From Candidatus Sulfobium sp. (GTDB lineage: Bacteria; Nitrospirota; Thermodesulfovibrionia; Thermodesulfovibrionales; UBA6898), in NCBI GenBank assembly GCA_037380845.1, contig JARRRI010000038.1, forward strand, positions 740 to 28,527: 27,788 nt of DNA, in the 5' to 3' direction. The notes under the pieces are model-generated. The model searched no databases and was not told the origin of the DNA. It saw only the letters and a list, made by a program, of their open reading frames with translations. The position numbers and the translations under genes are program-made. Shown here piece after piece: positions 1,496 through 20,186 of this stretch; within the stretch, counting starts at the first letter, position 1, and each line of letters opens with the position of its first letter.

Positions 1496-2533
1496 ATGTC
1501 GAAAAAAGTCGTCTTTTGTTTCCATACCAACGACCATGAGTATAATATGGGCATAGGGTTTCTCTCTTCTTTTCTGAAAAAGAACGGAGTTGAAAGTGAT
1601 CTCGTAGTTTACCGTGAAATTCCGGGGAAATCGATCGATACGCCTGAATCCGTGGCATCTGAAATCATGGAGAAAGGTTCTCCGGTAGTCACATTTTCCG
1701 TTATGACATTCAACTGGCTTCGTATCAGAAAGATAATCTCCCTCCTCAGGCAGATGAATTATAACGGTCTCATAGTCGTGGGAGGTTATCACGCCATCCT
1801 CACCCCCGATGAAGTCCTGTCGGAACCGGGTGTGGACGCGGTCTGTATGGGGGAGGGGGAAAAGCCATTGCTTGAACTTACGAGGCTTTTTTATGGCGGG
1901 AGCGGAAGGATGCTGCCATCCGTGAGGGGAATTCTACTCAAAGGCGACAGTCCGTATGACATCTCCGACAAGAGATGGCATGTACCGAATCAGGAAGACT
2001 GCCCCTATGTTGATTATGAACTGTTCGGCTCCGAGGGTAATGAGGATCTTTCGAAGAAATTGATCGGCAGCCTTTCACCCGAAGCAACATTTCCACTCGC
2101 TGTTATCGCGGGAAGGGCTTGTCCCCACAAGTGCACATATTGCAGCAACAGCGCTCTGATAGACCATTACGTTGAGGAGGCTTGCACGCTCCGCAAACAT
2201 GGAATAATGATAGTAACGTTCAACATACCTTATGAAACAAAGGACCCTATAAGAAAGACATTTGACCTCAATGCCGCCATAGAACCCGATGCCGCTATAC
2301 CCTTTATTTACCAGGTCTTTCCCTCAACGGAGCTCGCCAGAATCGCTTACGAAGGGAGCATGGTTCCATCCCTGCCCGAGGGGAGATGGGACTATTGCAC
2401 GGCGTCGCTCGACACCCCGGACCTGCCTGCGTCGGATGTCGTAGGAATAGTTCAGGATTTCGGAGAGAGATTTGGGAACAGGGATCAGGTGGAACATGTT
2501 TACTCGACGCTGAGGCAACTCGTTTCGTACTAG
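1496..2533 (+). pseudogene. B12-binding radical SAM protein, in frame but apparently missing the centre of the radical SAM barrel
   Basis: N-terminal B12-binding domain (MGIGFLSSFLK, IVVGGYHA, D.VCMGEGE); CxxxCxxC (CPHKCTYC, nt 2120-2143); then an abrupt jump at about nt 2170 to the C-terminal EEA..LRKHGI...FN.P.ET...T..LN..I.PD. Only 345 aa. Confidence 0.65.
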
Positions 2534-5794: not shown

Positions 5795-8077
5795 TTAGTC
5801 CTTTGTGTTTCCGAGCATGCTCCGGATATTCTCCGGCAAGTCCTTAAACCTGCGAAGTTCCGATATATAGTATCGGGCCTTCTCCGCATTACCCTTCAAG
5901 TAGTATGCCCTTGCCTTGTTGAAGGGGACCATGTACTTGGGCATGTCGTGTCTTAACGCCTTATCATAAAATTCCCCGGCCTCCCTCTCCCTGCCCATGA
6001 CCATGAGAACATTTGCCATCGAAAGGTAAGGCTGATATGAAAAGGGGGATTTTGAAACCGCTCGCCGGGCGTAAACCAGAGCATCTTCCGGCTTCGATCC
6101 TCTGACCAGCAGAAGGTCCGCCATGTCAGACAGCGCCAGAGTGTTATCAGGGTCAAGCTGAAGCGCTTTAATGAAACAATTATATGCAAGCGGAATATCT
6201 CTTTTCAACATATACGCCACCCCCATGCCGTAATAGGCGGACGCAAACCCGGGATCGATAGACAGTGCCTTCTTGTAGCTCCCTATCGCGTTATTCGCCA
6301 TCCCCTTCGCCCTGTATGAATCGCCAAGTAACGTATATACCACCACCGTATCGGTTGCGTTTGCCTTCGCAGCCGGCAAAACCTTATCGTATTGCCTGAT
6401 AGCCCGGTCGACATTGCCCGTCAGGGAATTATAGAAGGCCCTCAGGATTTCCGGCTTGTAAGAGTCAATAACATTGTTGAATTCGTCTATCAACTTTTTG
6501 GCTTTAGGCAACTGTCCCCTGAAAAGATATATCATGCCGAGGCTGTATGCAGCGTCGTTGAAAAAATGCACCCTCTTGTTTGCACCGCTCATCTTCATGA
6601 CCTTCTCGTAACACCTCCGGGCATTATCGGTGTCAGCCGCTTTAAGGTAGGCGTTACCGAGTGATTGCATTGCCCGTATATTGGAAGGCACTTTTTGCAC
6701 TGTATCTGTCCATAAGGTTATTGAATCCTTCCACACGAAATTCCTCACAAAAGTCAATGACCCGAGGGCAAGACAGAGAACTGCGGCACAGCCCCAAACA
6801 ACCCTCTCCTTTGTCCTGAAAGACACAAGTATCTGGCCCGCTATCCCGATAACCAGGCCCGCAAGAGGCAGGTAATTCCTGTGCTCAAAATAGAGGTCGG
6901 AACCGAGAGCCAGAAAGCTCTCCAGAGATATAGCAATGAAGTACCAGAGAATGCCGAAACACAAGAGGGGGAATCGCTTAATTTTCGATATCGAAAAAAT
7001 CAGGAGTATCAGAATAAACGCCATGGAGAGCAGAGTGGTTATCGGCTCCGTCAGGCCGTGGGAGACGGGATATCCCCACCAGTCAAAAACAAGAAATCGT
7101 GGAAGGGGCGCAAATATGAGCAATATATACCGCGAAACGACCCGGAATTCGGTCAGGATATGCTCAAGCGGAGTCCAGTATACATCGGTCGCCATCCAGC
7201 TCTTTGTCGGCAGCGGTTGATTGAAATTCATTAGCATATGCGCCAACTCATTAAATCTGGAATAGAGGTTGAGAGAATGAGATGCAACACCAATACTTGC
7301 AATACCAATAGCAGTAACGATTAACATCTTCCTGGCGAAAAGTCTTCGGTCAAACCTTGAAAGAAAGACGTAGTCATAAAGCATTATGAGAGGAGCCGCC
7401 ATGACTGCATTTTCTTTAGCAAATATTCCGGTTATGAGAAAAATAGCACTCAGGAAATATAAGCACAGACTCACCGTCCAGCGTTGAGATTTATCGGCGG
7501 CTACATAACTGAGAAGTGAAAGCAGAACGAAAAATGCAGCAAGTGACGCCATCCTCTGGACAATGTAAGCAACTGCGTTGATGTTCAGGGGGTGCAGAGC
7601 GAATATTCCGCCGCTGATGAGGGCAACTGAAAAGGCCCGGTCCTTCAGAGAAGACAGCGGACTTTCCCGCCCCTCGGTGATTTTTTTATCCATAGGGCGG
7701 GTGCTTCGCCCATAAAGAAGGAATATGGACTGGTATGCCAGCAAATATACAAGTGCCGCATTCAGAAAATGGAGAAAAATGTTAAACAGCCTGAAATTTA
7801 CCGGGCTGAAGGGGGCGATAGACCTGTTGAGGAGGAATGTAAAAGAGGCTACCTTTCTATAGCCCACGATATCACCGATTTCGCCAAGACCCACGGGTCT
7901 TTTTGCCAGGACGTCATCCAGCGCCCAGGTACCGTGAAATGAACTCGAATAAGCGAGGAAGGTGGCGAAAAGCAGCAAAATTAAAGCAACTGCATGCTTT
8001 CTGATAATAACGCTGCGACGGCTCCAGTCCCCTGCAGACACTTGTTGATTCAGTTTGCCGGACTGCATGATTCCCAT
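5795..8077 (-). CDS. TMTC-like polytopic GT-C membrane glycosyltransferase with C-terminal TPR repeats (putative protein O-glycosyltransferase)
   Basis: First TM followed by AYSSSF...W.LDD (acidic DD loop), N..LH..N..LV, FALHP...AV.YI.QR, KE.A, FEHRNYLP, RN.VWKD..TLW.D, then several TPRs (A...LG..Y). Start may be ATG 8068. Confidence 0.85.
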   Translation of the reverse strand: MGIMQSGKLNQQVSAGDWSRRSVIIRKHAVALILLLFATFLAYSSSFHGTWALDDVLAKRPVGLGEIGDIVGYRKVASFTFLLNRSIAPFSPVNFRLFNIFLHFLNAALVYLLAYQSIFLLYGRSTRPMDKKITEGRESPLSSLKDRAFSVALISGGIFALHPLNINAVAYIVQRMASLAAFFVLLSLLSYVAADKSQRWTVSLCLYFLSAIFLITGIFAKENAVMAAPLIMLYDYVFLSRFDRRLFARKMLIVTAIGIASIGVASHSLNLYSRFNELAHMLMNFNQPLPTKSWMATDVYWTPLEHILTEFRVVSRYILLIFAPLPRFLVFDWWGYPVSHGLTEPITTLLSMAFILILLIFSISKIKRFPLLCFGILWYFIAISLESFLALGSDLYFEHRNYLPLAGLVIGIAGQILVSFRTKERVVWGCAAVLCLALGSLTFVRNFVWKDSITLWTDTVQKVPSNIRAMQSLGNAYLKAADTDNARRCYEKVMKMSGANKRVHFFNDAAYSLGMIYLFRGQLPKAKKLIDEFNNVIDSYKPEILRAFYNSLTGNVDRAIRQYDKVLPAAKANATDTVVVYTLLGDSYRAKGMANNAIGSYKKALSIDPGFASAYYGMGVAYMLKRDIPLAYNCFIKALQLDPDNTLALSDMADLLLVRGSKPEDALVYARRAVSKSPFSYQPYLSMANVLMVMGREREAGEFYDKALRHDMPKYMVPFNKARAYYLKGNAEKARYYISELRRFKDLPENIRSMLGNTKD

Positions 8078-8306
8078 ATTATAAGCCGGGTGTCTGTCCT
8101 AAAAAAAGGCCCACTGATATCCCAGATTCTCTCTGTCAGATAAAATGACCGGACGGCAAAGTATTTATGGTATGAAAAGAAAGAGATTAATAGTATATCG
8201 CCGGGATTACCGCGCAGCCAGGAAGTCTCGCCGAAACAGAGGTGGCGAGAAGAGGGTTAACCTCCCCGCCGTTCCTCACGTTTCCTGCCAACTCTCCGAA
8301 TAATGC

Positions 8307-10238
8307 CTAATACGATGGGTAAAGAACAGAGTCGTTATCGGCGTAACCTATTCTAATCGAGGGCGCAGTCTTCGTCGCCGTGTTGTAAAGCATAACGTAA
8401 TAACAACCCTCAGGGTTAGGTGCCGGTATCATTACCGTCTCAAACGATATCGAACTTAAAGAGGCATAAAAGCCGCCAGTCCCGGTCTGCCAGGTACCGG
8501 CCTGCCAAGCCGAATGAATCCTTTTCCAGTCAGCCAGTGTGGGTAAAACACCGTCACAGGTCGCTCCTGCATATCTCACGATCATATCCACATAATGAGA
8601 CCCGTCAGACTGCTTCATATCGGCCATATCGATCATCAATGTATTTGCATTGCCTTGCCCTTTATCACTGTTTTCATTGAAATAGTAATATCTCACCTGT
8701 CCGGAAGAAAAGGAGGTAAAATACTTGCTCCCGTTCTTGATCAGAGTCGCATTACTTGGAACGGAGACCGACGCTACCACTAAAGTGACACTGATCGTCT
8801 TGGTGCCAAGGTCGCTGGAGCTCACAGTGACCGTTCCCCTGTAAGTGCCCGCGGGAAGCGCGCTACTGGCAAACTTGACGGTCAAACCGCCGCTTCCGCT
8901 AGCATTCACCACAGGGGACCTGATCCAGGAGATGGTAGAGCCGACAGCCGTCGTGTAGCTCGCCGAAACACCCGTAACCGTATATGGAACCTGGTTGCCG
9001 CAGTTGTCTTCAATGTTGACCACAGTGTCTGCCGCGTCGCTGCCGGCAATGGAATTAGTTGAAACGGAATAGGGGCTCGAAGCAATCGAAGAAGCGGTAC
9101 AAGACGGAGGAGGGGTATTGCCGTCGTTGACATTTACACTGACTCTGAGAGTAGCGGCTGTCAAGCTGCTATAGGCCCCGGTCCCTTTAATGCTCACGGT
9201 GCCGGAATACTGGCCGGCGCTCAGGCCCGATGCTGTAACTGTGATCGTTCCCGAACCGCTGGACTGCACGCTAAGCCACGAATTTCCGCTTGTTACAGAA
9301 GCAGAATAACTGACAGCCGCTCCGCAGTTATTTGTGACGGAGGTCGTCGCCCTCTGTGACACGTTTGGTACAGCGTTCATGCTCACCGGCCAGACACTGA
9401 TGGACGAGGGAGTACATTGTGAACCTCCCCCTCCGAGGTCCAGGTTCGCGGGGGTCACGCTAAGTCTCACAGTCACCGTTTTGCTTTGCCCCCCTGCCGA
9501 GACGGTTATATTGCCGGTATAAGTTACGTTCGCAATAAGGGAGGTCGTGTTCAGGGTAACAGACAGAGCGCCGCTCTGTTTCGAAAGCTCTATCCAGGTC
9601 TGCGACGACGTTGCACTGAAATCCGGAGCGTGCCCACAGGAGTCCCGAACCGTTAAAGTATCCGACCAGCTCGTCCCCTTTGAGACCGATGCCGATATTG
9701 AAGACTTGTTAAGCACGATACCTGTGCATGAATCCGTGGGGGTCGGTGAAGGAGTCGGTGATGGAGTCGGCGATGGGGCGGGGGCGGACTTTATGTATAT
9801 ATTCCTTGTACTGCACGTTGCCGCATCCGTCAGATGACCATCGAATGTCCCGTCCAGGCACACGTGCAAAACAAACGGGTCCATGCCGGTCGTGTCTTCG
9901 GCCAAAACCCATGGTACATATATATAATCGACCATGGATTCGACCTTGACAACCGGCCCAATCTCCTGGTTGTCAAGGAAAGGCACCCACTGCGTCTCAC
10001 CGTTCAGATAATCTTTGTCCTGCGTATTTATACCCTGCTTCCATATAAAAAGATCTACCGGCTTCGACTGCAGGTCTCCGCCCACAAAGAATAAGGGGAC
10101 TGTCAGCGGGCTGCCTTCGTTTACCGTGATATCATCATTGCAATTGTTGATATATATATCGGCACTCGAAGTCACAGCCATTAAAAAAAGGGTGGCACAG
10201 AAGACAAGTGCAACCGACAAAATCTTCCTGCTTTTCAT
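8307..10238 (-). CDS. Secreted multidomain surface protein: signal peptide, N-domain, Pro/Thr linker, three BACON/Ig-like repeats, PPC-like C-terminal domain
   Basis: Start moved to ATG 10238 (AGGAGG at 10245-10250). Signal MKSRKILSVALVFCATLFLMAVTSSA. Repeats contain 'SW(I/L)...G.LTV......L..G.Y.G.(I/V)T(V/I)'. Very Ser/Thr rich. Confidence 0.8.
   Translation of the reverse strand: MKSRKILSVALVFCATLFLMAVTSSADIYINNCNDDITVNEGSPLTVPLFFVGGDLQSKPVDLFIWKQGINTQDKDYLNGETQWVPFLDNQEIGPVVKVESMVDYIYVPWVLAEDTTGMDPFVLHVCLDGTFDGHLTDAATCSTRNIYIKSAPAPSPTPSPTPSPTPTDSCTGIVLNKSSISASVSKGTSWSDTLTVRDSCGHAPDFSATSSQTWIELSKQSGALSVTLNTTSLIANVTYTGNITVSAGGQSKTVTVRLSVTPANLDLGGGGSQCTPSSISVWPVSMNAVPNVSQRATTSVTNNCGAAVSYSASVTSGNSWLSVQSSGSGTITVTASGLSAGQYSGTVSIKGTGAYSSLTAATLRVSVNVNDGNTPPPSCTASSIASSPYSVSTNSIAGSDAADTVVNIEDNCGNQVPYTVTGVSASYTTAVGSTISWIRSPVVNASGSGGLTVKFASSALPAGTYRGTVTVSSSDLGTKTISVTLVVASVSVPSNATLIKNGSKYFTSFSSGQVRYYYFNENSDKGQGNANTLMIDMADMKQSDGSHYVDMIVRYAGATCDGVLPTLADWKRIHSAWQAGTWQTGTGGFYASLSSISFETVMIPAPNPEGCYYVMLYNTATKTAPSIRIGYADNDSVLYPSY
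9739..9786 (-). repeat. 12-bp tandem repeat encoding the APAP(SPTP)3 linker
   Basis: + strand GGGGTCGGTGAA GGAGTCGGTGAT GGAGTCGGCGAT GGGGCGGGGGCG. Confidence 0.9.
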
Positions 10239-10265
10239 AAGGGACCTCCTGGTTAAATCTATGCC

Positions 10266-10294
10266 ATTATAACAATTCATGCGGACATATTCAA
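10266..10294 (-). promoter_or_regulatory. Sigma70-type promoter of the BACON-repeat gene
   Basis: Minus strand TTGAAT-17 nt-TATAAT with extended -10 TG, about 28 nt upstream of ATG 10238. Confidence 0.7.
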
Positions 10295-10580
10295 TGGCAA
10301 TCGAAATTAAATTTTCTCCATAATTTATTTTGATTATATTGGCGCCGTGCTACAGCGCTTTTTTACCTGCTTTCCGGCCGGAATTCACGCGAGGTGGATG
10401 GCCAAGTCCTTTATTTCAAAGGAAAAGGGTGATGGCAGAGGATTTTCAGGAGATTCCCTCCAGAGAGATTTGCGGGGGGCCGTCGGACTAAGGAGCAAAG
10501 GCAAGCCCAAAAAACTCAAGCTGCCTCATCTGAAAAAAACTGCGGCGGCCAAGACTTGTAGACAGTGTGTGACAAATCCC

Positions 10581-10644
10581 GTCATGCCGGCGAAAGCGGC
10601 CATCCGAAACTTTCGAAAATACCTGATTCCCGTCTACACGGAGA
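10581..10644. repeat. Degenerate REP-like palindrome pair
   Basis: GTCATGCCGGCGAAAGCGGCCATCC (10581-10605) followed by a decayed inverted unit CTGATTCCCGTCTACACGG. Confidence 0.65.
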
Positions 10645-10749
10645 CGCAGGAAACGGCTGAATAACGCCTTCTAATGCCTGGAACTGGTAACCGGCTAAAA
10701 AATACCATGCTATTTGATTTATTGCCCTTCTTTGCACAAAGCTTTCCGA

Positions 10750-10790
10750 AGAAAACGGGGAAGCGGATCATTTGTCCGCTTCCCCGTTTC
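10750..10790 (-). terminator. Intrinsic terminator after the S-layer-like gene
   Basis: Perfect 15-bp stem AAACGGGGAAGCGGA (10753-10767) / TCCGCTTCCCCGTTT (10775-10789), 7-nt loop, TTTTCTT tail on the minus strand, 25 nt past the stop. Confidence 0.85.
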
Positions 10791-10814
10791 TCTGCAAAAA
10801 ATGCCTTACCTAGT

Positions 10815-12284
10815 TCACTGAACTGCGATATAATTCGTCTTGAACTTACCAGGCAGCATATGCGTCAAGCCACCTTCGATATATCCCTGCAGCTCATACG
10901 TGATCACAGGAAGTCCCTGCATTGTCACGCTGTTGATGGTGGTGCCGGTGTTTGTAGCGGGAGAAACCTGCAGCCAGCCGAAATTGAAGCCCGCAGGGGC
11001 CTGGAGGTTGAACTGCACCAGGTTCGAATCTACGAGAGGCTCGGCGTTCTGACCAATCACAATGAGGTTGACCTCATCACACTTGAAGAGTTTTGCGGTC
11101 TCACCCGGAGAGAAGCCCGTTGTCGTCGTCGGTTTCTGCTCGGCATCGTTCCAGATGACCGGACCGACTTCCACACACCTGCCACTGTCGGACGGAGTCG
11201 TCACGTCTGTTCTGCACGACGAACCCACCATTGTGCCAACAGCACCGTTATCAGCTATACATGCATCCGGATTAAACGGATTTTGAGCTCCCAAATCCGT
11301 AATCGACCACCTCTTGGTCGGAAAAGTCTCAACGAGGGTTGACGCGGCGGCGAACACTGACTGGATGTCATACATAAAGTCCTCTTCAGACTGCGTCAGC
11401 GCAAAGTTCACCTCGTCGATGCTCGTGCCGTTTAAGTTGTTGTCCGTTCCACTGGAGAGCCTCGGAGGATCTTCCGTCCCAAGACCCGGGGATGCAATGA
11501 CAGTCCTGGTGAAATCGGCAAGGGCGGTCGCGTTGTAAGCATAGGTTCCGCCGTTAACAAAATTATACGCCGTACCCATCAGCGAGTTCGGGGGCGTAAC
11601 AAGCTCCGGTATTGTGAAATTCGAAGGCGCCTGTTGCAGACCGAGCACTGCGGCGCACTCGTCAGGAGTTTCAACCACCTTGGCCGCGCCCGGTGTATCG
11701 CGCCATGCATTTACGGCGATGATTCCCAGATAGCCTTCCTTCGTGTCATCAGCGGACACTGAGGGGGCAGCTCCGGTAGCACTGTAATGCAGCGGTACCG
11801 AAACGAGACTGGAAAGGTCGTCGGCGAAATTATTCGTGGCATCATTGTCACCGTTCGGATCCGGGAAAGTCGGTGTGTCGTTATCATACCAGATGAGCTG
11901 CGCCGGATTGGCGGAATTACCGTCCCCTACAATCCATCCTGACCATTCATCTCCTGCGCTCAGGCAAATGAAGAAGTCAAGAGTTTCATTACTATCAGCA
12001 CCCTCTCTGAACCTCACCTTGGCGGAAACGCCAAAAGACGTGCTCGTATTGACCACCTTGATGAAGTCGAGCGCGTTGCGAGCATTGTAATACCCGTAAA
12101 TCAGTGCCTGACCCTGACCCGCCGGATTGACATAAACATCTGTGGGCGGCGTGACAAAAGAATCAGTGACTCTCTTTGAAGCAAGCCCGTTCACCAAGCC
12201 TTCGGCAGCTTCACTTTTCACGGGCAGGCCGAAGCCTAACATCACAATAGCCAGAACTAATATAAGTAAGCCTCTTCTTATCAT
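10815..12284 (-). CDS. Secreted acidic cell-surface protein, probable S-layer subunit
   Basis: Signal peptide MIRRGLLILVLAIVMLGFGLPVKSEA; strong RBS AAAGGAGG; own terminator; A/T/G/N/D rich. Motifs VNP.G.GQALIY.YY, KVRFRE...S.E.LDF.I.LS..D.W, TFPTK, EVN.I, GW, GLPV recall proteobacterial 'cell surface protein'/S-layer sequences (from memory, not searched). Confidence 0.65.
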   Translation of the reverse strand: MIRRGLLILVLAIVMLGFGLPVKSEAAEGLVNGLASKRVTDSFVTPPTDVYVNPAGQGQALIYGYYNARNALDFIKVVNTSTSFGVSAKVRFREGADSNETLDFFICLSAGDEWSGWIVGDGNSANPAQLIWYDNDTPTFPDPNGDNDATNNFADDLSSLVSVPLHYSATGAAPSVSADDTKEGYLGIIAVNAWRDTPGAAKVVETPDECAAVLGLQQAPSNFTIPELVTPPNSLMGTAYNFVNGGTYAYNATALADFTRTVIASPGLGTEDPPRLSSGTDNNLNGTSIDEVNFALTQSEEDFMYDIQSVFAAASTLVETFPTKRWSITDLGAQNPFNPDACIADNGAVGTMVGSSCRTDVTTPSDSGRCVEVGPVIWNDAEQKPTTTTGFSPGETAKLFKCDEVNLIVIGQNAEPLVDSNLVQFNLQAPAGFNFGWLQVSPATNTGTTINSVTMQGLPVITYELQGYIEGGLTHMLPGKFKTNYIAVQ

Positions 12285-12396
12285 TTCTCCTCCTTTTATC
12301 GCGGCACTTTTTTGCCAGCCACACTGGCAATATTAAAATCTATCTTAATTGATGAGACAAAATTCCTCCCAGCGATCACCACCTCCTTTTCCTTTT

Positions 12397-12879
12397 CTAA
12401 TTTCCTGGGTGAGGTATAAATTGTTCGAAAACATGGTACCACTGACCCTCAAGCCTCACCCACTGCTCATTTACAAACATGTCATGTACAAATGGTTTAG
12501 CACCCGGAATCTTGTACTCTCCATTTACCTTGACCCTTACCTCCGCATGATCTTCGTCCTCTTTATCTATTTTCACAACCTCGAAGTCCCTGTACTTCAC
12601 CATCGGATTTCCCGATCTTTTGATGTAATTTACTAAGCTTATTTTCTCTCTATAAAGTGGAGACTCAAAGATGTACGACCTGTCATATTCCCCTCGGCTC
12701 CTGAATCCCCAATAAGCAACCACTCTCTCTCTCAACGCCTCCTCGTCAGATACTTTCTTTACTGCACCTTTTGTAGCACATCCACTCGAAATAATCAACC
12801 CAAAAAAACCTATGCAAATCGCTGCTACCGATACCGAAAAAAAGCGTTTATATTTTCTCAATCTGAAATCAAGTTCCAA
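12397..12879 (-). CDS. Small lipoprotein, possibly NTF2-like fold
   Basis: Basic N-terminus, hydrophobic stretch, lipobox-like ISSG-C; then EEALRERVVAYW...Y.F..P.YR...EQWVRLEGQWY. TTG start is uncertain. Confidence 0.7.
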   Translation of the reverse strand: MELDFRLRKYKRFFSVSVAAICIGFFGLIISSGCATKGAVKKVSDEEALRERVVAYWGFRSRGEYDRSYIFESPLYREKISLVNYIKRSGNPMVKYRDFEVVKIDKEDEDHAEVRVKVNGEYKIPGAKPFVHDMFVNEQWVRLEGQWYHVFEQFIPHPGN

Positions 12880-12890
12880 AGTTTTAAAAA

Positions 12891-12919
12891 ACTATACTAA
12901 AAGATTCCCAATAAGTCAA
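12891..12919 (-). promoter_or_regulatory. Sigma70-type promoter upstream of the lipoprotein/S-layer genes
   Basis: Minus strand TTGACT-17 nt-TATAGT. Confidence 0.65.
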
Positions 12920-12972
12920 GCATTTTAAAAGCTCTAAAAGCAAAACCGGACGGTCTAAATTATAATACATAT

Positions 12973-12988
12973 AGCAAGATTCCTGCCA
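12973..12988 (-). promoter_or_regulatory. Sigma54 (-24/-12) promoter upstream of the lipoprotein/S-layer genes
   Basis: Minus strand TGGCAGG-AATC-TTGCT versus consensus TGGCACG-N4-TTGC(A/T); exact GG-N10-GC spacing. Confidence 0.7.
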
Positions 12989-13123
12989 GCCCTCCATATG
13001 TTCCATCTTGTCGTTAACGACCCGAATATCCATGTTTTTCGAAGGCAGGAATAAAACGTTTTGATGTACAGTGTGTCTCTGCCTCCACACGTCGTGTATA
13101 ATATTTGCAACAAGAAGACCATC

Positions 13124-15164
13124 CTAAGGGCTAACCGCCGGGGCTATCGCCGGGTGCGGACTGTCCTTTCTTTGTTCTGTTCCGTTTTGTTCGTCCTCTG
13201 TACGTTTCGGTCCATGTATGAACTTGTCTATCTCCTTGTCTTTGGTTTCCTCCTTATACCGATTGATATAACGCGATGTAACGTCCTGCGCCTCCTTCTG
13301 GTTCCGAACAACGTGAGGGGTAAGCAGGATGATCAGCTCTGTTCTGATATCCGAGTCAGATGTATTTCCGAAAAGATATCCCAGAATTGGTATCCTGCTC
13401 AAAAAGGGTATGCCATTTCTTCCATGGCTCTTGTCCTGTCTTATTAGGCCGCCGATAACGATGGTCTCGCCATCCTGGGCAACAAGATTAGACTGGGCCT
13501 CGGTCTTGTCAATCGTTACCTCGTCCTGGCCTGCTATCGACACGGGGGTCCCGATCTGCGAGATCTCCTGGGAGAAATCAAGATTGATCAGCCCGCTGTC
13601 ATTCACCTGTGGCTTTACCTTGAGGATAATGCCGATATCTTTATACTGAATTGTTGATGTAGTTGTAGTCGAGACCGTTGTGCCCGTGCCTATCGGCGTG
13701 TTAGTCTGTGAAGTAGCGAGAGGGACCTGGCTACCGATCTGGATACTCGCCTCTTTATTGTCAGATACCATGATGTGTGGAGCCGCCACGACATTTACGT
13801 TGGACCGGTCTTGAAGAGCAGTAAGCACCGCTCTCACATTGTCGGTTGGATCGAGGCCTATAAAGGTAAACCCTTCAGAGGGAATCGGGTTCGACTGAAT
13901 GTCGAGATTGCCCGGATTCTGCCCCATCTGGCTGTTGAGATTAATATCCCTTTTGAAAGGATGCAACTTCAGGTCTGTCTTCAGAGACCAGGAAAGACCG
14001 AAACTCAGGTTGTCTGTCAGCTTCACCGAGACTATCAGCGCTTCAATAACGACCTGCCTCGGCGGTATGTCGATCTTGGCTATCGCATCCTTGATAATTT
14101 CGTAATCGTCCGGGGTGGCCATTATGATAAGTGAATTCGTGACCTCGTCAGGGATTATCTTCGTGACGTCCGAAACCATTGTGCCGGTCCCCCCCTCGGC
14201 CGTAAAGACCTGCGGCTGCGGGGTGGGGACCGGCTTCTGCCCCGGTATAGTTCTCCTTGCAGGAGTAGTCACAGGCGTCTTTGTAGAAGTTGTCGGCTTG
14301 GCGCCCAGAAATATCTGCTGGAGGAGGTTCGCAACGTCCTTGGCCTTTCCGTTCTGTATCGGATATACGAAGACCCTCGGTGTTATGGCCTTCAACTCTT
14401 CACTATCGAAAAGACTTACGAGTTGAAGCAGCCGTCTGACGTTACTGTCGGTATCCACGATAACAATATAGTTGCTGTTCGGAACGTCTACGATGACAGC
14501 ATTCTTCGACAGAAAAGGCGTCAGCACCCGCACCATCTCTGATGACTGTATGTATTTGATCTGAACCACCTGCACCAGCGCCTTTCCGGTTATCTTTACC
14601 TTATTCGGGTCCCTCCCGACCGCGACGGGAGCAGGCTCTTTCGATATATCGGCTATGGGGATTATCCTGTATAGCCCCCCCTCCTCGACAATGCCGATGC
14701 CGTTAAGCCGGAGTATCACCTCCATCAGAGGCAGAACGTCTTTTTTTGCTACGGGTTCGACAGACCTGAAAGTTACCCTCCCCTTGACCGCGGGGTCGAT
14801 CACATAGTTCACCCTCAGGACGTCCCCAAAAATAGTCTGGATAACGGAATATACGTCCGCATCGTCGAAATTGAAACTCACCGCCCCCCGCGGCTGAGCA
14901 GGAGGCGCCTGGGGCTGCAACGGCTGCTGTTTAGGCTGCGCCGGTGGCGGCGTCTGCTGGGCTTTCGCCGGTGTCGGCATGGCCTCGGGCTTCGGCGCGG
15001 CAGGCGGAAAGAGCCGGGGTTGAGGCTTGGGCTGTTCCGTCTTTGGTGCCGTGGCTGTGCTGTCGGAGGTTGCGCCTTGGGTTGTACAGACGGTGGCGGT
15101 GTCGGCGTGGGCTGTGCGGCCTGCTGGGCCATCATAACTGCCGCTGCCAACCCTCTCCCGTCAT
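13124..15164 (-). CDS. gspD: Type II secretion secretin GspD; main ORF 13124-14980, 5' end apparently frameshifted
   Basis: N0 VSFNFDDAD...NYVIDP.VKGRVT, N-domains, secretin core QVVIEALIV.V, P.I...DN.EA.I.IG..VP, Y.D.GI.L.V.P, GETIVIGGLI, GIPFLS.IPILG.LF, RTELII..TP. RBS AAAGAGGT plus ATG at 15164 is out of frame with the main ORF. Confidence 0.9.
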
Positions 15165-15194
15165 AAAATACCTCTTTAAATATCAGGCAAGTTA

Positions 15195-15223
15195 AGAATA
15201 ATTTATTTGGGGGACTATGTCAA
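15195..15223 (-). promoter_or_regulatory. Sigma70-type promoter of gspD
   Basis: Minus strand TTGACA-17 nt-TATTCT, 30 nt upstream of ATG 15164. Confidence 0.7.
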
Positions 15224-15311
15224 GAAACGGACGGGGGAGAGGTTATTCCTTCGTCAATCTATTTACTGGGCAAGCGCTCGTAAATTGAGCACCATTCTGT
15301 CGCTCCTTCCT

Positions 15312-15430
15312 AGCCGGAATGACCCGACCCTTCACGGGCAACTTTCAGGGAAAGAAGGATCCCGACCTGCATGCCAGCAGGCAGGCGCGAAGCCTGTCCC
15401 GGCTTGTTCGGGGCTTGCGGGAATAACAAA
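15312..15430. repeat. REP-like units with nested small palindromes
   Basis: AGCCGGAATGAC (15312-15323); AAGAAGGATCCCGA...GCGGGAATAACAAA interrupted by near-palindrome CCTGCATGCCAGCAGGCAGG (15366-15385) and by CCTGTCCCGGCTTGTTCGGGG. Confidence 0.6.
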
Positions 15431-15473
15431 CTGTGAGGCTTTTCTTACGACAGTTCTGGTAAGGCTCTAATAT

Positions 15474-17345
15474 TCACTTCCTTGAACTGTCAAGTTTTGC
15501 TATCGCATCGAACCACAGATTTTTCCTGACCTCATCGGAGTCATACAAGGTCAACGCGTTACGATCATAAATGAAGTCGGCGCCATCAGAATTCTCATCG
15601 CCTGAAACTGAATTGTACTGAAGATGCCATCCGATTTCCTTTTCTTTCTTGTCAAAACGGCCAATTCTGTCCCTGAAAATCTTCTTGAGGCCGTGCTCCC
15701 GGCTTCTGATCGGGAAATGCATCGTGATGAACCTGACAGGAAAGATGCGCCTCCCCTCGAAAGCGACCATATGGCCTGCCGTACTGGCCAGATCGATCGT
15801 CTGTCCCAGGTTTTTCCATCCCTTCACCTGCATACTGTCAAAATCCTCGGCCAGCTCGTAATACTTCAAATATTTCCTCACATCGTCTCCTGCCACATAA
15901 GAATCATCAGTCGGCCTGAAGTTCAGCACATTAAAATCGATCGCGTTGTAGCCCAGACTGTCCGCAATGCGAATTCCTTCTTTCAATCCCATACCCGGCC
16001 ACGGCGCCTCACGGAATTCATCCACATCATAATGCATATACCAGTCGGCATCCAGCTCGCCGTGAAGCTGCTCCACCCTCTTTGTAATGAATCGCAGGGC
16101 AAAGGTATTGACAAAATCTTCGGAAAACCCGCTTTCCTGGGGAAATTTCTCTATGCGCAGTAACCCTTTTCCAAGCCATTTTGAAGCCTCGTCGACTGTC
16201 TTGTCGGTTGAATTATGGTCCATGAGATAGACAAAGATCCCGTTTTCGATCAGATGCTTCAGGGAATGGTAGATGATGTCTTCCTCATTGTACACACACA
16301 TGATGGCAATGATCCTGAAATCATCGCTCCCGCGTTGCACAGGCCGTCTGGCGCTGCCCGAGGACTCCGCGGCGGCCGCCTCCATAAAGCCCTTCAGCTT
16401 ACATGCCCGGAGTGCTTCCCAGTATGCCTGATGGAGCAGCCTGAGTGTAACTTCGTCAAGATCAAAGCCTGACTTGAGTTTAAGGTTGGCGATTCTGTCC
16501 AGTTCACGGGCGGCACGCATAATTTCACCAAAACGTCCCCGAATATTGTCCCAGTTCTCAGCAGCACCCGGGACTTCACACCATTCCTGGACGCCCGGGT
16601 CGTCATGCATCCTGCTGCATGCAAAGTTGGACCTCCCCTGCTTCATCAGTCTCCGGCAGAAGCCGTCGAAATCCACCGGCCTCGTCATATAAGCGACGGC
16701 GTTAGCGTTGTAAACAATCCTGAGGCCCTGTTTCGACAGCCGGTATCCCAGCTCCGTGTCCTCGTTGCCGAACCGGAAAGCCGGGTTGAAAACACCATGG
16801 TCGATCAGGAAAGACCGCTTACATGAGGTACGCCCTCCCCAAAAATTCCTGTAATCGAGGATATCGCCGTGTTTGATATAGCGATAGGCAAAGAGAAAGC
16901 ACCCTATGTCGGTCATAAAATGCATAACCGGCGTCACAGAGACCTCGGGAGACCAGGCCGTGTGATGCAATACGGCATAATTATCTTTTGGGTATTTGCG
17001 ATGAGTCTTAACATGTTCTTCGAGAAGACCCGGGGTGGCAATGTCATCATCGTCAAGAAAAAGCAGGATCTTCCCCTGAGCAGTATATATGCCGTGATTC
17101 CTCGCCGAGGCAAGGCCGGCGTTATTCTGATGGAAGTACTTCAGAGGAAGAGTATCTGAGAACGACGCGGCAACCTCCGAAGTATTATCGGCGGAGCCGT
17201 CGTCAATAACGATCACCTCAAACTCATCCCGCGAAAGAGTTTGTTTGACGAGAGCCTCCAGTGCCTCCTTCAGCAACTCGGCCCGGTTATAAGTGGAAAT
17301 GATAACGCTGAGAAATCGAGATTTCTCCGGAGTTGCGCTCTTCAA
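15474..17345 (-). CDS. Two-domain GT2 glycosyltransferase
   Basis: Domain 1: SVIISTYNR, VIDDGS, N.G...ARN.G, LFLDDD, ED.ELGYRL. Domain 2: IIAIMCVYNEEDII, DHNSTD, DW....DVDEF. 4-nt overlap with the upstream gene. Confidence 0.9.
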   Translation of the reverse strand: MKSATPEKSRFLSVIISTYNRAELLKEALEALVKQTLSRDEFEVIVIDDGSADNTSEVAASFSDTLPLKYFHQNNAGLASARNHGIYTAQGKILLFLDDDDIATPGLLEEHVKTHRKYPKDNYAVLHHTAWSPEVSVTPVMHFMTDIGCFLFAYRYIKHGDILDYRNFWGGRTSCKRSFLIDHGVFNPAFRFGNEDTELGYRLSKQGLRIVYNANAVAYMTRPVDFDGFCRRLMKQGRSNFACSRMHDDPGVQEWCEVPGAAENWDNIRGRFGEIMRAARELDRIANLKLKSGFDLDEVTLRLLHQAYWEALRACKLKGFMEAAAAESSGSARRPVQRGSDDFRIIAIMCVYNEEDIIYHSLKHLIENGIFVYLMDHNSTDKTVDEASKWLGKGLLRIEKFPQESGFSEDFVNTFALRFITKRVEQLHGELDADWYMHYDVDEFREAPWPGMGLKEGIRIADSLGYNAIDFNVLNFRPTDDSYVAGDDVRKYLKYYELAEDFDSMQVKGWKNLGQTIDLASTAGHMVAFEGRRIFPVRFITMHFPIRSREHGLKKIFRDRIGRFDKKEKEIGWHLQYNSVSGDENSDGADFIYDRNALTLYDSDEVRKNLWFDAIAKLDSSRK

Positions 17346-18070
17346 ATTCTGCTCATCCTCACCCTGATGATATCCTTAAGCATCTGAAGCGAATCCTTGA
17401 GGGGAGACACTTTGGAGTCCGGAGAATTGAGCCACCTGATCGGGACCTCCTTTATCCTATAACCTGCTTCACGCGCCAGATAGAGGATCTCCACATCGTA
17501 AGCAAAACGGTCTACCGATGCGCTCGAAAAAAGGGCCCGCGCCGAGCTCCCGTCAAAGAGTTTAAATCCGCATTGTGTATCTTTGAAGTCTTCCAGAATA
17601 AGAAACCTCACAATCCTGTTAAAAACCTTGCCCATGAATACTCTCCAGAAGGGCTGTTTCACCTGGATGCGACTGCCTTCCACAGCCCTCGATCCTATGA
17701 TTATATCGTAACCAGCGTCATGGAAGACAAGCAATTTCTCTATCTCCTCGACAGGCGTCGAGAGATCGGCATCCGAGATGAGGACCAGATCCCCCCTTGA
17801 CATGGCGACACCAAAGCGTATTGCATATCCTTTGCCCCGGGTTTGTTCATAGGCCTCATATCGTAACGCCGGTATCTTCCTGCCGGCATCAGACACGACA
17901 GCAGCCGTATCGTCCGAACTCCCGTCATTGACGACGATTATCTCGAAACGTTCGAAGCCCGCACCGCAGTATTCAGCGATCCGGGCCAGGGTCGGGCCTA
18001 TGCGAGCCGACTCGTTATAAGCAGGGATTACTATCGAGATGAATTCTTTTCTCTTTCCCTTTTGATGCAT
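17342..18070 (-). CDS. Polyprenol/dolichyl-phosphate glycosyltransferase (DPG/DPM synthase-like GT2)
   Basis: SIVIPAYNE, VNDGS.D.T, GKG.A.R.G, SDADLSTP, IIIGSR, DTQCGFKLF, F.YDVEIL, IKEVPI.W....SKV. Confidence 0.88.
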   Translation of the reverse strand: MHQKGKRKEFISIVIPAYNESARIGPTLARIAEYCGAGFERFEIIVVNDGSSDDTAAVVSDAGRKIPALRYEAYEQTRGKGYAIRFGVAMSRGDLVLISDADLSTPVEEIEKLLVFHDAGYDIIIGSRAVEGSRIQVKQPFWRVFMGKVFNRIVRFLILEDFKDTQCGFKLFDGSSARALFSSASVDRFAYDVEILYLAREAGYRIKEVPIRWLNSPDSKVSPLKDSLQMLKDIIRVRMSRI

Positions 18071-18242
18071 AAATACTTCCTTCCCTTTCTTACACCAAAC
18101 GCCGCTTCAGTCTTAATATAATTGGAGTCGCCGTCGAGAATTTCAGGGCAGCGGCGCTTCTCGTCATTCCCCACTCAGTAATTATCAGTAATCAGCGTGC
18201 CAGAAAACAAGCGGTTTCTACATTTCCCGAGTCAGCGCAGAC

Positions 18243-18495
18243 TTAACGCTAACGTTGCAAAAAGGCCTGATTTTCAAGTTCGTCATTCCGGCGGTGTGTT
18301 GAGCCGAAATCCAGTTGTTAGTTTTAAAAGTCGCTGGATGCCCCATTAAGGACCTCCGGCATGACGGACAAAGGCTTCATTTGGTGTTAATATCCGGGGG
18401 ACTCCTGATTTAGCCATCTTACTGTGACTCACAGCCCGCCGTTTAACGCCTTTGCGCACATTTATGTGCAAAGTTTTTTGCAATCTAATGGTTAA
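18243..18495. mobile_element. MITE-like element: imperfect terminal inverted repeats enclosing a REP-like doublet
   Basis: TTAACGCTAACGTTGCAAAAA (18243-18263) and TTTTTGCAATCTAATGGTTAA (18475-18495) match 16/21 as inverted repeats. Internal CGTCATTCCGG...ATCCAG / CTGGAT...CCGGCATGACG (18281-18366). Confidence 0.5.
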
Positions 18496-18680
18496 TGCTC
18501 CAATGAATCAATGGACCGCAAGCGAAACTGTGTCCAATTGGTCTGTTCCAAGGGGCTTTCTGTCACGCAACCTTCTCCTTTGTCCGATTTATCTGCTATC
18601 ATATTACGTTCTTCTATAACTAACATTGAAGTCAATGCTGGCGGAACCAATCAAATAAGCGGCCATAATAACAGTCAACA

Positions 18681-20186
18681 ATGCGGGGATTCAATCAGAG
18701 GGTGAGCATACTGAACGTTGAGAGCGAGAGGGGCCGCTGGTTGCTTTTTATCTTTTCAGTTCTTTGCGTTAAACTCCTTATTTTTCTACTTGACCCTCTC
18801 CCCATGTTCTTTCTTGGCGATTCGGCGAGCTATATTCAGACGGCCGTGAATGGCTGGATCCCGCCCGACAGATCGTTTACCTACGGCTTTATTATCAGGG
18901 CGGTTGCCGTCGCCGTCCATTCTCTGACGCCGCTTGTCACGCTTCAGGTATTTACCAGCGGTATTAACGCCATAGTGGTTGCATACCTTCTGCACAAATT
19001 TTTCAAGATAAACTCAAATCTTTCTTTCATATGCGGGTTGCTTTGCGCCATAGAGCCTCACCAGTTGATGTATGAGCGATACGTGATGACGGAAGCCTTT
19101 TCCCTCTTTATATTCGTCTGTTACCTGACGATGATTTTTCATTATATGAGTAAACCGCGACTGCGCCTCCTCGCGGCTGTCCAGATAACCGGAACCATAC
19201 TTATAAGCCTCCGTTTGAGTTACCTCCCCCTTGTTCTCATTTATACCATTCTTGTGCCCCTGCTCATAATCCCGGGACTTCTCAGGAAATACTCGGTAGA
19301 ACTGAGGCCGTTGAGAAATTTCTTTGGTTCTGCCGCGGCAGTCAACCCTGTCATAAAGACGGTGACCATTCATCTTCTATTTTCAGTTCTGCTCACCTCC
19401 GCTTTTCATCTCGGTTATAGAGAGCTGAATGGATTCCTGACAAACAACCCTCCTTCATATCAGTATCGCAGCGGCACGATCGTACTTACAGCTTTTCTGC
19501 CGATTGTAAAGCCGGACGATTTTCCCCGTCATGATATTTCGCGAGAGATTTTTGGTAACGTGAAATATGACTTAAACGTCCGCAATAATCGCGTTCTTCA
19601 CCATTGGCATCAGGGTGGACTTATTGACCTTATTTCCCAAGCGATTCCTGATCCCCTTGAGGCCGACCATGTTGCCGGAGTGACTGCTTTCAACGCCATA
19701 AAACGGGATCCTGTCGGAGCGGCTTCTGTAATTGTCTCAACCTTCGCGGACTTCTGGAATCTGGGCTTTCTCAAGGGCAGCCTGTTAAATGACAGGGGCG
19801 ACAGGCCTCTCCCAAAAGAATTGCTTGAGACATTGAGAAACAGCTTCGGGCTTCAAGCCGAAAATTTACCTTTCCTAAAGACATTTACAAACAGCTACTA
19901 CATGGACGCATGGTTTTGGTACTTATTGCTGCTTTGTTCGCCCTTATTTGCCTTTCTGAACCTTTTTATCTGCCGTACCGAAGTCCGGAGCTTCGTTTTT
20001 GTTGTGTTGCTGTCATCACTTACGGTAGTTATTGTATCAAGCACTTTCGTTGAAGGTGTAACCGTCCGCTATCTGCATCCGCTCGGGTGGCTGGCCTTCC
20101 TTGTTCTGGGCCCCCTTCTTGATTTTTTACTGCTTCGCCATAAAAAAGCGCCCAAGCAGTCTACGAATACGACTCCAGTATCGTGA
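18681..20186 (+). CDS. Polytopic membrane protein, probable GT-C (ArnT/PMT-like) glycosyltransferase
   Basis: Many hydrophobic segments; GDSASY after TM1, P.R...Y, YERYVMTE, late RY..P; large soluble loop. Convergent 26-nt overlap with the next gene. Confidence 0.65.
   Translation: MRGFNQRVSILNVESERGRWLLFIFSVLCVKLLIFLLDPLPMFFLGDSASYIQTAVNGWIPPDRSFTYGFIIRAVAVAVHSLTPLVTLQVFTSGINAIVVAYLLHKFFKINSNLSFICGLLCAIEPHQLMYERYVMTEAFSLFIFVCYLTMIFHYMSKPRLRLLAAVQITGTILISLRLSYLPLVLIYTILVPLLIIPGLLRKYSVELRPLRNFFGSAAAVNPVIKTVTIHLLFSVLLTSAFHLGYRELNGFLTNNPPSYQYRSGTIVLTAFLPIVKPDDFPRHDISREIFGNVKYDLNVRNNRVLHHWHQGGLIDLISQAIPDPLEADHVAGVTAFNAIKRDPVGAASVIVSTFADFWNLGFLKGSLLNDRGDRPLPKELLETLRNSFGLQAENLPFLKTFTNSYYMDAWFWYLLLLCSPLFAFLNLFICRTEVRSFVFVVLLSSLTVVIVSSTFVEGVTVRYLHPLGWLAFLVLGPLLDFLLLRHKKAPKQSTNTTPVS

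Follow-up and report, generated by a model that had tools for sequence, protein, structure and literature searches.

The stretch of DNA analysed here, a window of 27,788 nucleotides from the genome of an uncultured Candidatus Sulfobium sp. of the phylum Nitrospirota (contig JARRRI010000038.1), very probably carries a surface-layer (S-layer) module, to judge from the family memberships of its genes, the fold and topology of their products and their linkage to one another. On the reverse strand, the genes for a GspD-type secretin, a small lipoprotein, a putative S-layer protein of the NpdA family (489 amino acids), a Ser/Thr-rich secreted protein and a TMTC-like enzyme follow one behind the other; the last is a GT-C glycosyltransferase with a TPR arm that resembles the animal TMTC enzymes. 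An earlier note on this DNA had proposed a candidate complete system for the glycosylation and secretin-mediated export of an S-layer or adhesin. It is highly probable that an S-layer protein and the secretin of its type II secretion system (T2SS) are encoded here, and it seems fairly probable that the TMTC-like enzyme acts on this surface system. From the gene content we infer a secretion route, a sugar donor and, most tentatively of all, an acceptor. For the whole chain of steps, including a protein as the acceptor, we estimate a probability of about 0.4.

The putative S-layer protein (positions 10815..12284, reverse strand) has one N-terminal hydrophobic segment, at residues 5-23, and gave no match in Pfam or NCBIfam. 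A word-indexed protein search returned 122 relatives at E ≤1e-3, all of them unnamed and without Pfam domains. When 62 sequences centred on Nitrospirota were compared by hhalign with 10 proteobacterial proteins, the two sets matched over 429 columns with a probability of 100% (E 3e-90, 25% identity), and an N-terminal motif is common to the 489-residue protein and its proteobacterial relatives. The genes of these 10 proteins follow gsp clusters in Thauera butanivorans, Ca. Nitrotoga, Haliea, Thiothrix and Usitatibacter; among the 120 matches listed, all proteobacterial relatives are named 'hypothetical'. In the ESM Atlas, a cluster that bears the name 'surface layer protein NpdA' lies next to the protein, at a feature score of 0.97; Atlas results, like those of the complex predictions described below, are taken as weak evidence. 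Mutagenesis and immunolabelling are reported to have shown that NpdA makes up both the S-layer and the sheaths of the 'nanopods' in Delftia acidovorans Cs1-4 (PMC3110197). It is also described as the S-layer protein of Paracidovorax citrulli, with npdA following a cluster of 12 gsp genes and with orthologues in 62 beta- and 49 gammaproteobacterial species, and the taxa listed include the same proteobacterial genera as found here (PMC10765051). Judged by its sequence relationships, the 489-residue protein belongs to the NpdA S-layer family, though only distantly. Its AlphaFold2 model is all-beta, with a predicted local distance difference test score (pLDDT) of 91.8 and a predicted template-modelling score (pTM) of 0.89. 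No match to the fold was found by Foldseek at E ≤1e-3; the best VIA-align match was TM1070 (Z 5.6), followed by galectin-like sandwiches at Z 3-3.6. No clear solved relative emerged from these searches.

To define the neighbourhood of such genes, we surveyed NpdA-like sequences by a pattern search and tblastn in one genome per species, which gave at least 611 encoding stretches, of which the best 78 loci were examined. Locus gene calls throughout are simple open reading frames (ORFs). Beyond Nitrospirota, NpdA-like loci were found in Ca. Nitrotoga, Usitatibacter, Thauera butanivorans, Dokdonella, Tahibacter, Haliea, Thiothrix and Wenzhouxiangellaceae, and also in metagenome-assembled genomes (MAGs) of Rhodothermales (L084) and Opitutaceae (L047). 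Homology searches with the window proteins, together with an unbiased clustering of all ORFs from the 78 loci, revealed one order of genes on the same strand: pseudopilins, GspJ, GspK, GspL/M, GspN/C-like, GspD, the small lipoprotein and the NpdA-like gene, followed by a parvulin-type peptidyl-prolyl isomerase, Wzm, Wzt, and methyltransferase and GT2 genes. Among those loci whose DNA extends far enough on the side in question, the secretin is present in 50/63, the lipoprotein in 58/71, GspK in 39/50, the isomerase in 43/59, Wzm in 36/57, Wzt in 35/53 and a related GT2 in 31/45. The gsp names were checked on two loci, those of Nitrotoga and Rhodothermales, where NCBIfam identified GspG, XpsH/I-like, GspJ, GspK, GspM, XpsN-like and GspD proteins (GspD at 485.5 and 460.4 bits, respectively). 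Thirteen loci with enough upstream DNA lack a secretin; in several of them, three or four paralogues stand in tandem. Arrays of two to four NpdA-like paralogues with no nearby secretin were noted in L035, L037, L044, L094 and L098 (also L051, L069 and L082).

The Nitrospirota sample comprised 401 genomes, from which ten S-layer loci were fetched (L001-L010). The lipoprotein gene stands directly before the S-layer gene in all ten, the order secretin, lipoprotein, S-layer gene is kept in eight, and the isomerase is found in eight; T2SS platform genes are directly adjacent in four. In the window, the S-layer gene is preceded by gspD and the lipoprotein gene and by no other gsp gene. The remaining parts are encoded elsewhere in the same genome: GspF to GspM, a GspN/C-like gene and Wzm are on contig C53, C64 carries GspE along with another secretin, and the gene that best matches the isomerase is located at the beginning of C2. 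The system, which the earlier note had listed as a candidate complete one, is therefore not complete at this locus, since the inner-membrane secretion genes, Wzm and the isomerase all sit on other contigs. Because the assembly consists of 104 contigs, true distances between the locus and the platform genes are not readable from it. An orphan secretin acting alone was considered and rejected, as related loci have the full gsp set and the genome itself has platform genes elsewhere. Five relatives carry three to five secretins per genome. In genome G398, a neighbouring operon contains WbaP directly upstream of GspE, then GspF on to GspM, and no secretin of its own.

These loci are like the NpdA system in that they encode a full-length homologue that measures about 50 kDa, starts with a signal peptide and matches no Pfam domain, and in that its gene lies directly behind gspD and the gsp cluster in related loci. 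They are unlike it in the low identity of about 25%, in the position of the window genome's gsp platform genes on other contigs, and in the addition of a TMTC-like GT-C enzyme in Nitrospirota. The taxa differ too, since the survey in PMC10765051 covered Pseudomonadota only, whereas the present loci include Nitrospirota, Rhodothermales and Opitutaceae. The main text of that paper does not mention the lipoprotein, parvulin isomerase or Wzm/Wzt neighbours, and the words 'isomerase' and 'glycosyl' have 0 occurrences in it, though its Fig. S5 may depict the genes for the lipoprotein and the isomerase. Taken together, NpdA homology and the conserved gsp linkage bear out the secretin-exported S-layer of the earlier note, as a system of known kind that is here extended to Nitrospirota.

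The secretin gene (13124..15164, reverse strand) encodes a protein with GspD N0, Secretin_N (two stretches) and Secretin domains by Pfam, and scores 422.3 bits against NCBIfam TIGR02517, above the curated cut-off of 351.35, in agreement with the secretin named in the earlier note. The assembled ORF (13124-14980), which begins in a region rich in Pro and Gln, lacks a signal peptide; ahead of this start the frame stays open for 180 bases but contains no start codon. The ATG at 15164 follows a purine-rich stretch that looks by eye like a ribosome-binding site, and is out of frame in the window. In eight related loci, the orthologues translate to 685-774 residues and have a signal peptide, a Pro/Gln/Thr-rich linker and the same N0 domain. 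We therefore compared the 5' end with contigs (not reads) of four marsh-metagenome runs, one of which may be the source of the window; the organism is present in marsh sediments (runs X1-X8), and no RNA run was among those listed for it. An X1 contig bridges position 15162 with 84 further letters between pieces that both end on 15162, a net gain of 85; X4 contigs break at 15162 too and have loose ends. One extra letter was seen as well, a C after 15051 in X1, X4 and X9 and an A after 15052 in X10. With 85 + 1 = 86 letters added, ATG 15164 lies 270 bases ahead of where the assembled ORF starts, in frame, and the restored secretin has 708 residues. The loose end behind ATG 15164 reads as a basic and then hydrophobic sequence like that of a signal peptide. 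Most likely, to judge from these sequences, the secretin gene is whole in nature and the window holds an assembly error or a strain variant. The spacer between this gene and the double-GT2 gene upstream contains a short palindromic repeat (15365-15445), of which five more copies were found in the genome at E ≤0.01 (C52, C4, C10, C14 and C5); it attracts many unrelated metagenome contigs.

Between secretin and S-layer gene lies the gene for the small lipoprotein (160 amino acids; 12397..12879, reverse strand). It has one N-terminal hydrophobic segment, and 42 aligned homologues have in common two tryptophans and the lipobox cysteine C34, which is invariant, so that its earlier designation as a lipoprotein holds. 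In complex predictions, the mature lipoprotein and the mature S-layer protein gave a median ipSAE of 0.49 (runs 0.64, 0.01 and 0.49) against 0.00 for the best control; the runs, for which custom alignments were used, agreed on at least 4% of contacts with a partner pLDDT of at least 74. In calibration, the mark was reached by 116/157 solved complexes and by 2/215 mismatched pairs, but at ipSAE ≤0.60 it was reached by 18/157 solved complexes, and both passing mismatches also fell there. The prediction thus lends weak support to a contact between the lipoprotein and the S-layer protein.

The TMTC-like enzyme (760 amino acids; 5795..8077, reverse strand) consists of a GT-C domain, at about residues 20-465 in its model, and a C-terminal TPR arm, in which Pfam finds TPR_1/2 and further TPR families at about residues 450-750. 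By sequence the GT-C domain is silent: searches of Pfam, NCBIfam and PDB sequences returned TPRs only, and the Foldseek matches to the whole model were likewise taken up by TPR proteins; 7/120 listed homologues are named 'protein O-mannosyl-transferase' (JGI). Its AlphaFold2 model (pLDDT 85.3) was therefore searched exhaustively by VIA-align against about 48,000 solved chains, among whose rows there was no solved TMTC. Residues ~20-465 matched the Pmt2 chain of Pmt1-Pmt2 (6p2r_B) with Z 16.9 over 350 aligned residues at a root-mean-square deviation of 5.0, followed by ArnT (5f15_A, Z 16.5), STT3 (6s7t_A, 16.3), AglB (16.3), ALG12 (16.1), Pmt4 (15.7) and PglB (13.4). Helical proteins can reach high scores simply through the way their helices are arranged; in this case, most of the domain is covered by the matches, the top three of which (Pmt2, ArnT and STT3) span 322-350 residues, and all of them belong to one enzyme class. 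A hydropathy scan showed 11 hydrophobic segments, a basic N-terminal tail and basic alternate loops. With an odd number of segments and the basic loops inside, the conserved acidic loops and the TPR arm should face the periplasm.

Within 60 homologues, D54 D55, R74, Q174 R175, K221 E222 N223, D332 W334 and R400 N401 Y402 are invariant and E398 nearly so. In human TMTC1, the corresponding residues are reported as DD at 52/53, KE at 219/220, DW at 330/331 and E-R-Y at 403/404/407, and the TMTC motifs M1-M7 as DD; SHKSYRP; RxD; KE(T/Q)xxT; DW; PxxP; and ERxxY (PMC7801869). The enzyme thus resembles animal TMTC1-4 (CAZy GT105) in its GT-C fold, 11 membrane segments, inside N-terminus and outside TPRs, and also in that loops 1, 3, 4 and 5 carry DD, KE, DW and E-R-Y, respectively, with residue numbers that differ little. 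Other motifs are kept in part: M2 as Y-R...F..LN without His-Lys, M3 as R175 without Asp, and M6 as a single Pro (P370). The enzyme is also unlike the TMTCs in giving no Pfam match to DUF1736, which lies between TM7 and TM8 in those proteins, and its donor would be a bacterial polyprenyl phosphate sugar. Since a DUF1736 match is missing and M2, M3 and M6 are partial, we call it TMTC-like rather than a TMTC. The model and the motifs support its being a GT-C enzyme with an outward TPR arm, in keeping with the TMTC-like GT-C and TPR protein announced in the earlier note. Prokaryotic TMTC homologues have already been noted in print (PMC7801869); a literature search on GT-C, TPR and periplasm turned up no study of a bacterial TMTC-like enzyme.

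The distribution of the enzyme was examined in the same 401 Nitrospirota genomes. GT-C domain homologues (E ≤1e-10) occur in 132 of them, often several in one genome (four matches in the window's own), while a clearly separated orthologous group (E ≤1e-50) is confined to 18. The S-layer gene is present in 11 genomes, and the GT-C orthologue is found in 9/11 genomes with it versus 9/390 without, a contrast inflated by kinship because all these genomes belong to one class. For linkage, 18 distinct Nitrospirota S-layer loci were counted (the window, L001-L010, L026, L027, L029, L030, L032, L033 and L034; L028 and L031 duplicate L002 and L005, and the 3.3-kb fragment L092 was excluded). The orthologue lies within ~10 kb of the S-layer gene in eight of the 18, namely the window, L002, L004 (an end fragment), L006, L008, L010, L026 and L033, and another GT-C/TPR paralogue is present in two, L005 (with a PMT_2 match and a GtrA gene beside it) and L007. 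In the loci outside Nitrospirota, no such GT-C enzyme was found, the window protein giving TPR matches only. Three orthologues that stand without an S-layer gene lie behind genes for secreted BNR-propeller proteins (L017 10899-12703; L022 2809-4604; L015 4421-6187), and in L017 and L022 weaker lipoprotein homologues, with no secretin, lie between the propeller gene and the orthologue.

On the donor side, the soluble GT2 of 242 amino acids (17342..18070, reverse strand) has its best PDB sequence matches in ArnC (2.1e-15), archaeal dolichol-P-mannose synthase (2.4e-15) and GtrB (7.7e-14). Its best NCBIfam matches (PgfS, AglJ, ArnC, dolichyl-P hexose transferase and PpgS) are all below cut-off, PgfS at 72 bits vs 500, and it has no hydrophobic segment. 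By its closest solved relatives it is probably of the polyprenol-phosphate sugar synthase type, as the earlier note had stated. In L014, a fragment of its orthologue (E 5.8e-78) lies directly upstream of the GT-C orthologue. A different GT2 (233-287 amino acids), paired with a DUF2304 protein, stands beside the GT-C orthologue in L008, L010, L014, L018 and L021, and DUF2304 alone at a contig end in L016, which together make 6/20 loci with a GT-C orthologue; in the window's genome, such a GT2+DUF2304 pair is encoded on contig C16. DUF2304 is the family of GacJ, which is reported to bind and stimulate the GlcNAc-P-undecaprenol synthase GacI; the product of GacI feeds the GT-C enzyme GacL, and Rv3632 is to PpgS what GacJ is to GacI (bioRxiv 10.1101/180810). 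Pfam and NCBIfam scans of the window recognised no GtrA or other flippase-type gene. Three-component GT-C glycosylation systems are said to consist of a synthase, a flippase and the GT-C enzyme.

Directly behind the S-layer gene, the Ser/Thr-rich secreted protein of 657 amino acids (8307..10280, reverse strand) has one N-terminal hydrophobic segment, a Pro/Thr/Ser linker and BACON-like Ig repeats, with weak matches to BACON and to BACON_2 (E 1.3e-5, 25.5 bits vs a cut-off of 25). Orthologues follow the NpdA-like gene in L001, L002/L028, L026, L027 and L029. In Nitrospirota generally, this slot holds varied secreted proteins, BACON-like, Flg_new_2-type or of no known family; ten that were examined have signal-peptide-like starts and 17.6-30.3% Ser+Thr, vs a background of 10.9% in the genome's long ORFs. 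The 657-residue protein itself, at 25.4%, is a candidate companion or acceptor. The S-layer protein contains 16.2% Ser+Thr, close to the median of its Nitrospirota-type family (16.3%) and to the proteobacterial relatives (17.0%). Both of the Ser/Thr-rich signal-peptide proteins of the earlier note have the N-terminal segment. Ser/Thr richness of the S-layer protein was dismissed as a sign of glycosylation, as it is the same in relatives whose examined loci show no such GT-C enzyme. A PEP-CTERM/exosortase system, prompted by PrsT-like TPR matches and sigma-54 regulators in L006, was likewise set aside, because the 489-residue protein has no such tail; the loci examined contain a single exosortase-like fragment, in L018.

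From these data the following mechanism may be proposed. The NpdA-family protein would cross the inner membrane by its signal peptide, leave through a T2SS, the outer-membrane secretin of which is the product of the gene two places upstream, and form its layer on the outer membrane after export. The small lipoprotein would be its conserved partner, perhaps an anchor, chaperone or pilotin, and the Ser/Thr-rich Ig-repeat protein downstream a lineage-specific companion. WbaP, the GT2 enzymes and the methyltransferases may build an undecaprenyl-linked glycan, with Wzm supplied from another contig. The TMTC-like enzyme, whose TPR arm and active-site loops should both face the periplasm, would take a single sugar from a polyprenyl-phosphate donor, made either by the 242-residue GT2 or by the GT2+DUF2304 pair of C16, and add it to a component of the surface system before export. 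As acceptor we tentatively favour a protein, either the Pro/Thr/Ser linker and Ig-like domains of the 657-residue protein or the S-layer protein itself. The TPR arm would then recognise folded beta-sandwich domains, by analogy with animal TMTCs and cadherins. More narrowly, it is doubtful that the enzyme O-glycosylates the NpdA-type S-layer protein, the Ig-repeat companion or both before type II secretion.

Several findings weigh against this mechanism. The link to the NpdA proteins of Delftia and Paracidovorax is drawn from matching taxa, matching gene position and the Atlas name, and not from a direct alignment. In the enzyme, residues 1-359 gave no DUF1736, PMT or PMT_2 match in Pfam at E ≤10, nor did the whole protein. 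The Ser+Thr content of the S-layer protein, being equal to that of proteobacterial relatives without the GT-C enzyme, is no sign of its glycosylation. All co-occurrence counts are inflated by kinship among the genomes. Two of the 11 S-layer genomes, G392 and G398, lack the GT-C orthologue, and eight of the 18 loci, four of them short contigs, show no such enzyme in the examined stretch. In 9/18 genomes with the orthologue, no NpdA-like gene was detected, and the orthologue there has GT4 genes, BNR-propeller proteins or Wzm/Wzt as neighbours. The co-occurrence that the earlier note had suggested looking for is thus found in part: it holds in nine of 11 genomes and as linkage in eight of 18 loci, but half of the orthologues occur without an S-layer gene. 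Finally, NpdA sheets are reported to need lipopolysaccharide for their assembly (PMC3110197), and the O-antigen cluster of Aeromonas salmonicida has the vapA/T2SS genes inserted between its wzm and wzt (PMC4483657), so that glycan genes near an S-layer gene need not serve the glycosylation of a protein.

The last point leads to the strongest rival explanation, which we regard as rather unlikely: all the sugar genes, the TMTC-like enzyme included, would serve an O-antigen-like polysaccharide that anchors the S-layer, the GT-C enzyme would add a side-branch sugar to this polymer in the periplasm, like GtrC, ArnT or GacL, and the proteins would remain unglycosylated. It is consistent with the lipopolysaccharide dependence and the Aeromonas layout just described, with a WbaP protein that passes its cut-off, with the conservation of Wzm, Wzt and GT2 genes beside NpdA-like genes across phyla, and with the GT4 and Wzm/Wzt genes that adjoin GT-C orthologues where the S-layer gene is absent. 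The streptococcal combination of a GT2, GacJ (DUF2304) and a GT-C enzyme is likewise reported to decorate a polysaccharide (10.1101/180810). Against it stand the long TPR arm on the periplasmic side and the set of TMTC motifs, as the animal enzymes with these features have protein acceptors (PMC7801869). In addition, the enzyme repeatedly adjoins genes for secreted proteins, NpdA-like, BACON-like or BNR-propeller. We know of no polysaccharide-modifying GT-C enzyme with TPRs.

It is improbable that the TMTC-like enzyme belongs to a set of general protein glycosyltransferases of the periplasm in this phylum, with other targets such as pilins or outer-membrane proteins, and that its place beside the S-layer genes reflects no more than a habit of envelope gene islands. 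The abundance of the wider family (132/401 genomes, often several copies, four in the window's own) relative to an S-layer gene found in 11/401, and the half of the orthologues whose genomes lack that gene, would fit such a role; however, the orthologous subgroup, at 18/401, is far rarer than the family, half of it falls in S-layer genomes, and the two genes lie within 10 kb in 8/18 loci. Very improbable, finally, is that the 489-residue protein is not an S-layer subunit here but a secreted lectin-like or adhesive protein of NpdA ancestry. Its identity of ~25% to the proteobacterial proteins, an N-terminal domain that is weakly galectin-sandwich-like (Z 3-3.6) and the three or four tandem paralogues found away from any secretin in some proteobacteria, as would fit a diversifying secreted family, might be read in this way. 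Homology over the full length, an N-terminal motif in common and a gene position that is likewise shared, behind gspD and the lipoprotein gene, argue for an S-layer subunit, as does the S-layer reported by cryo-electron microscopy in 16/17 cultures with npdA orthologues, counting P. citrulli (PMC10765051).

Among known systems, the A-layer of Aeromonas salmonicida (vapA, sps T2SS) is similar in that an S-layer gene, a dedicated T2SS and an ABC-transporter-type polysaccharide cluster lie together; the account of it in PMC4483657 reports no GT-C/TPR enzyme, small lipoprotein or isomerase, and the likeness noted here is one of gene layout. The animal TMTCs are reported to transfer mannose from polyprenyl phosphate to Ser/Thr of folded beta-sandwich domains (PMC7801869). 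In streptococci, PrsA is among the proteins whose Ser/Thr-rich regions are described as targets of GtrB/PgtC2 and the Pgf pathway (PMC11092751), so that protein O-glycosylation by a GT2 together with a GT-C enzyme has bacterial precedents and the contrast with PMT enzymes drawn in the earlier note was overstated. The present locus is like such bacterial GT2 and GT-C systems in having a putative GT2 lipid-phosphate sugar synthase, a DUF2304 helper in relatives and an extracytoplasmic GT-C enzyme, and like the streptococcal ones in having Ser/Thr-rich secreted proteins as plausible acceptors and, in related loci, a parvulin isomerase. It is unlike them in the TPR arm and TMTC motifs, in that no flippase was recognised in the window, and in that its own DUF2304 gene lies on another contig. 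A literature search found nothing on S-layer glycosylation in Nitrospirota.

What is new is, in the first place, the extension of the NpdA family and its dedicated secretion system, so far reported from Beta- and Gammaproteobacteria alone, to Nitrospirota and two further phyla (represented by Rhodothermales and Opitutaceae), together with a wider cassette of lipoprotein, isomerase, Wzm/Wzt and glycosyltransferases that the main texts do not describe, and the pairing of an NpdA-type S-layer system with a TMTC-like enzyme in one lineage. The locus also names concrete candidate acceptors and a candidate donor synthase for the large uncharacterised family of bacterial TMTC-like proteins. If the S-layer protein or its companion is glycosylated as proposed, it would be the first acceptor for this family and, if it is the S-layer protein, the first glycosylated S-layer of the NpdA kind; with a protein as acceptor, the system would offer a simple bacterial model for the choice of folded domains by TPR-bearing GT-C enzymes.

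A second kind of TPR-bearing glycosyltransferase was observed near NpdA-like genes. Thirteen betaproteobacterial loci (L040, L046, L050, L055, L056, L063, L064, L066, L071, L075, L088, L089 and L096) encode a cytoplasmic TPR-GT41 (OGT-like) protein, with no hydrophobic segment, about 4-7 kb downstream of the NpdA-like gene; none was found in the Nitrospirota loci or in the window's own genome. HMW1C-type GT41 enzymes glycosylate adhesins in the cytoplasm. The arrangement hints that TPR-guided glycosylation of the same cargo may have arisen twice.

ORFs and family scans placed every gene named in the earlier note where it had put it, and its list was correct as far as it went; it omitted the glycosyltransferase with two GT2-like regions (623 amino acids; 15474..17345, reverse strand), in which Pfam finds Glycos_transf_2 (two stretches) and Glyco_tranf_2_4 and which scores 175.6 bits as EpsD-like in NCBIfam, below the cut-off of 370. 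Its limits of 5795..20186 were too narrow as well, as the locus runs on to 304-5762 on one side and 20161-24460 on the other. A multi-pass membrane protein of 501 amino acids (18681..20186, forward strand) had been proposed as a second GT-C-like protein. Its Atlas structural neighbours are PMT_2/PMT/RgtA-D-like clusters at TM 0.70-0.76, which may serve as a lead; it gave no family match and no homologue in its own genome or in any related locus examined, and being thus not conserved, it stands outside any conserved system.

On the forward strand, the left part of the locus begins with a methyltransferase of 388 amino acids (304..1470), whose methyltransferase-family matches are all below cut-off and whose homologues adjoin NpdA-like genes in L044, L081, L082, L085 and L103. 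It is followed by a B12-binding radical-SAM enzyme of 345 amino acids (1496..2533; NCBIfam B12/radical-SAM matches below cut-off), with homologues in L009 (E 6e-108) and L033, and by a GT2-type glycosyltransferase of 360 amino acids (2534..3616), identified by the family scan, whose homologues lie downstream of NpdA-like genes in 21/78 loci. A protein of 590 amino acids (3990..5762), with a Pfam methyltransferase domain at residues 43-159 and a C-terminal GNAT-like domain, is encoded convergently with the GT-C gene. Sequences homologous to its C-terminal half directly adjoin the GT-C orthologue in L002 (16011-17084; the same in L028), L026 (16323-17360) and L033 (16653-17765), and match Acetyltransf_9 in L001 and L010.

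At the right end, on the reverse strand, lie a large GT2 of 899 amino acids (20161..22860; Pfam GT2) and the WbaP-type initiating phosphoglycosyl transferase (23003..24460; TIGR03022, 463.1 bits vs a cut-off of 403). Gram-positive S-layer glycan clusters also combine WbaP-like, Wzm/Wzt and methyltransferase genes. The large GT2 has SMC-like coiled-coil matches in its central part, at residues 214-376, a feature that we take to be reminiscent of the chain-length rulers in ABC-transporter-dependent polysaccharide synthesis. The closest named relatives of the window organism are Candidatus Sulfobium MAGs. The nearest of them (L026) keeps the order WbaP, large GT2, lipoprotein, S-layer gene, BACON-like gene and TMTC-like gene, and in place of the window's secretin, three glycosyltransferase genes and 501-residue protein it has just about 2.2 kb, in which two other ORFs lie.

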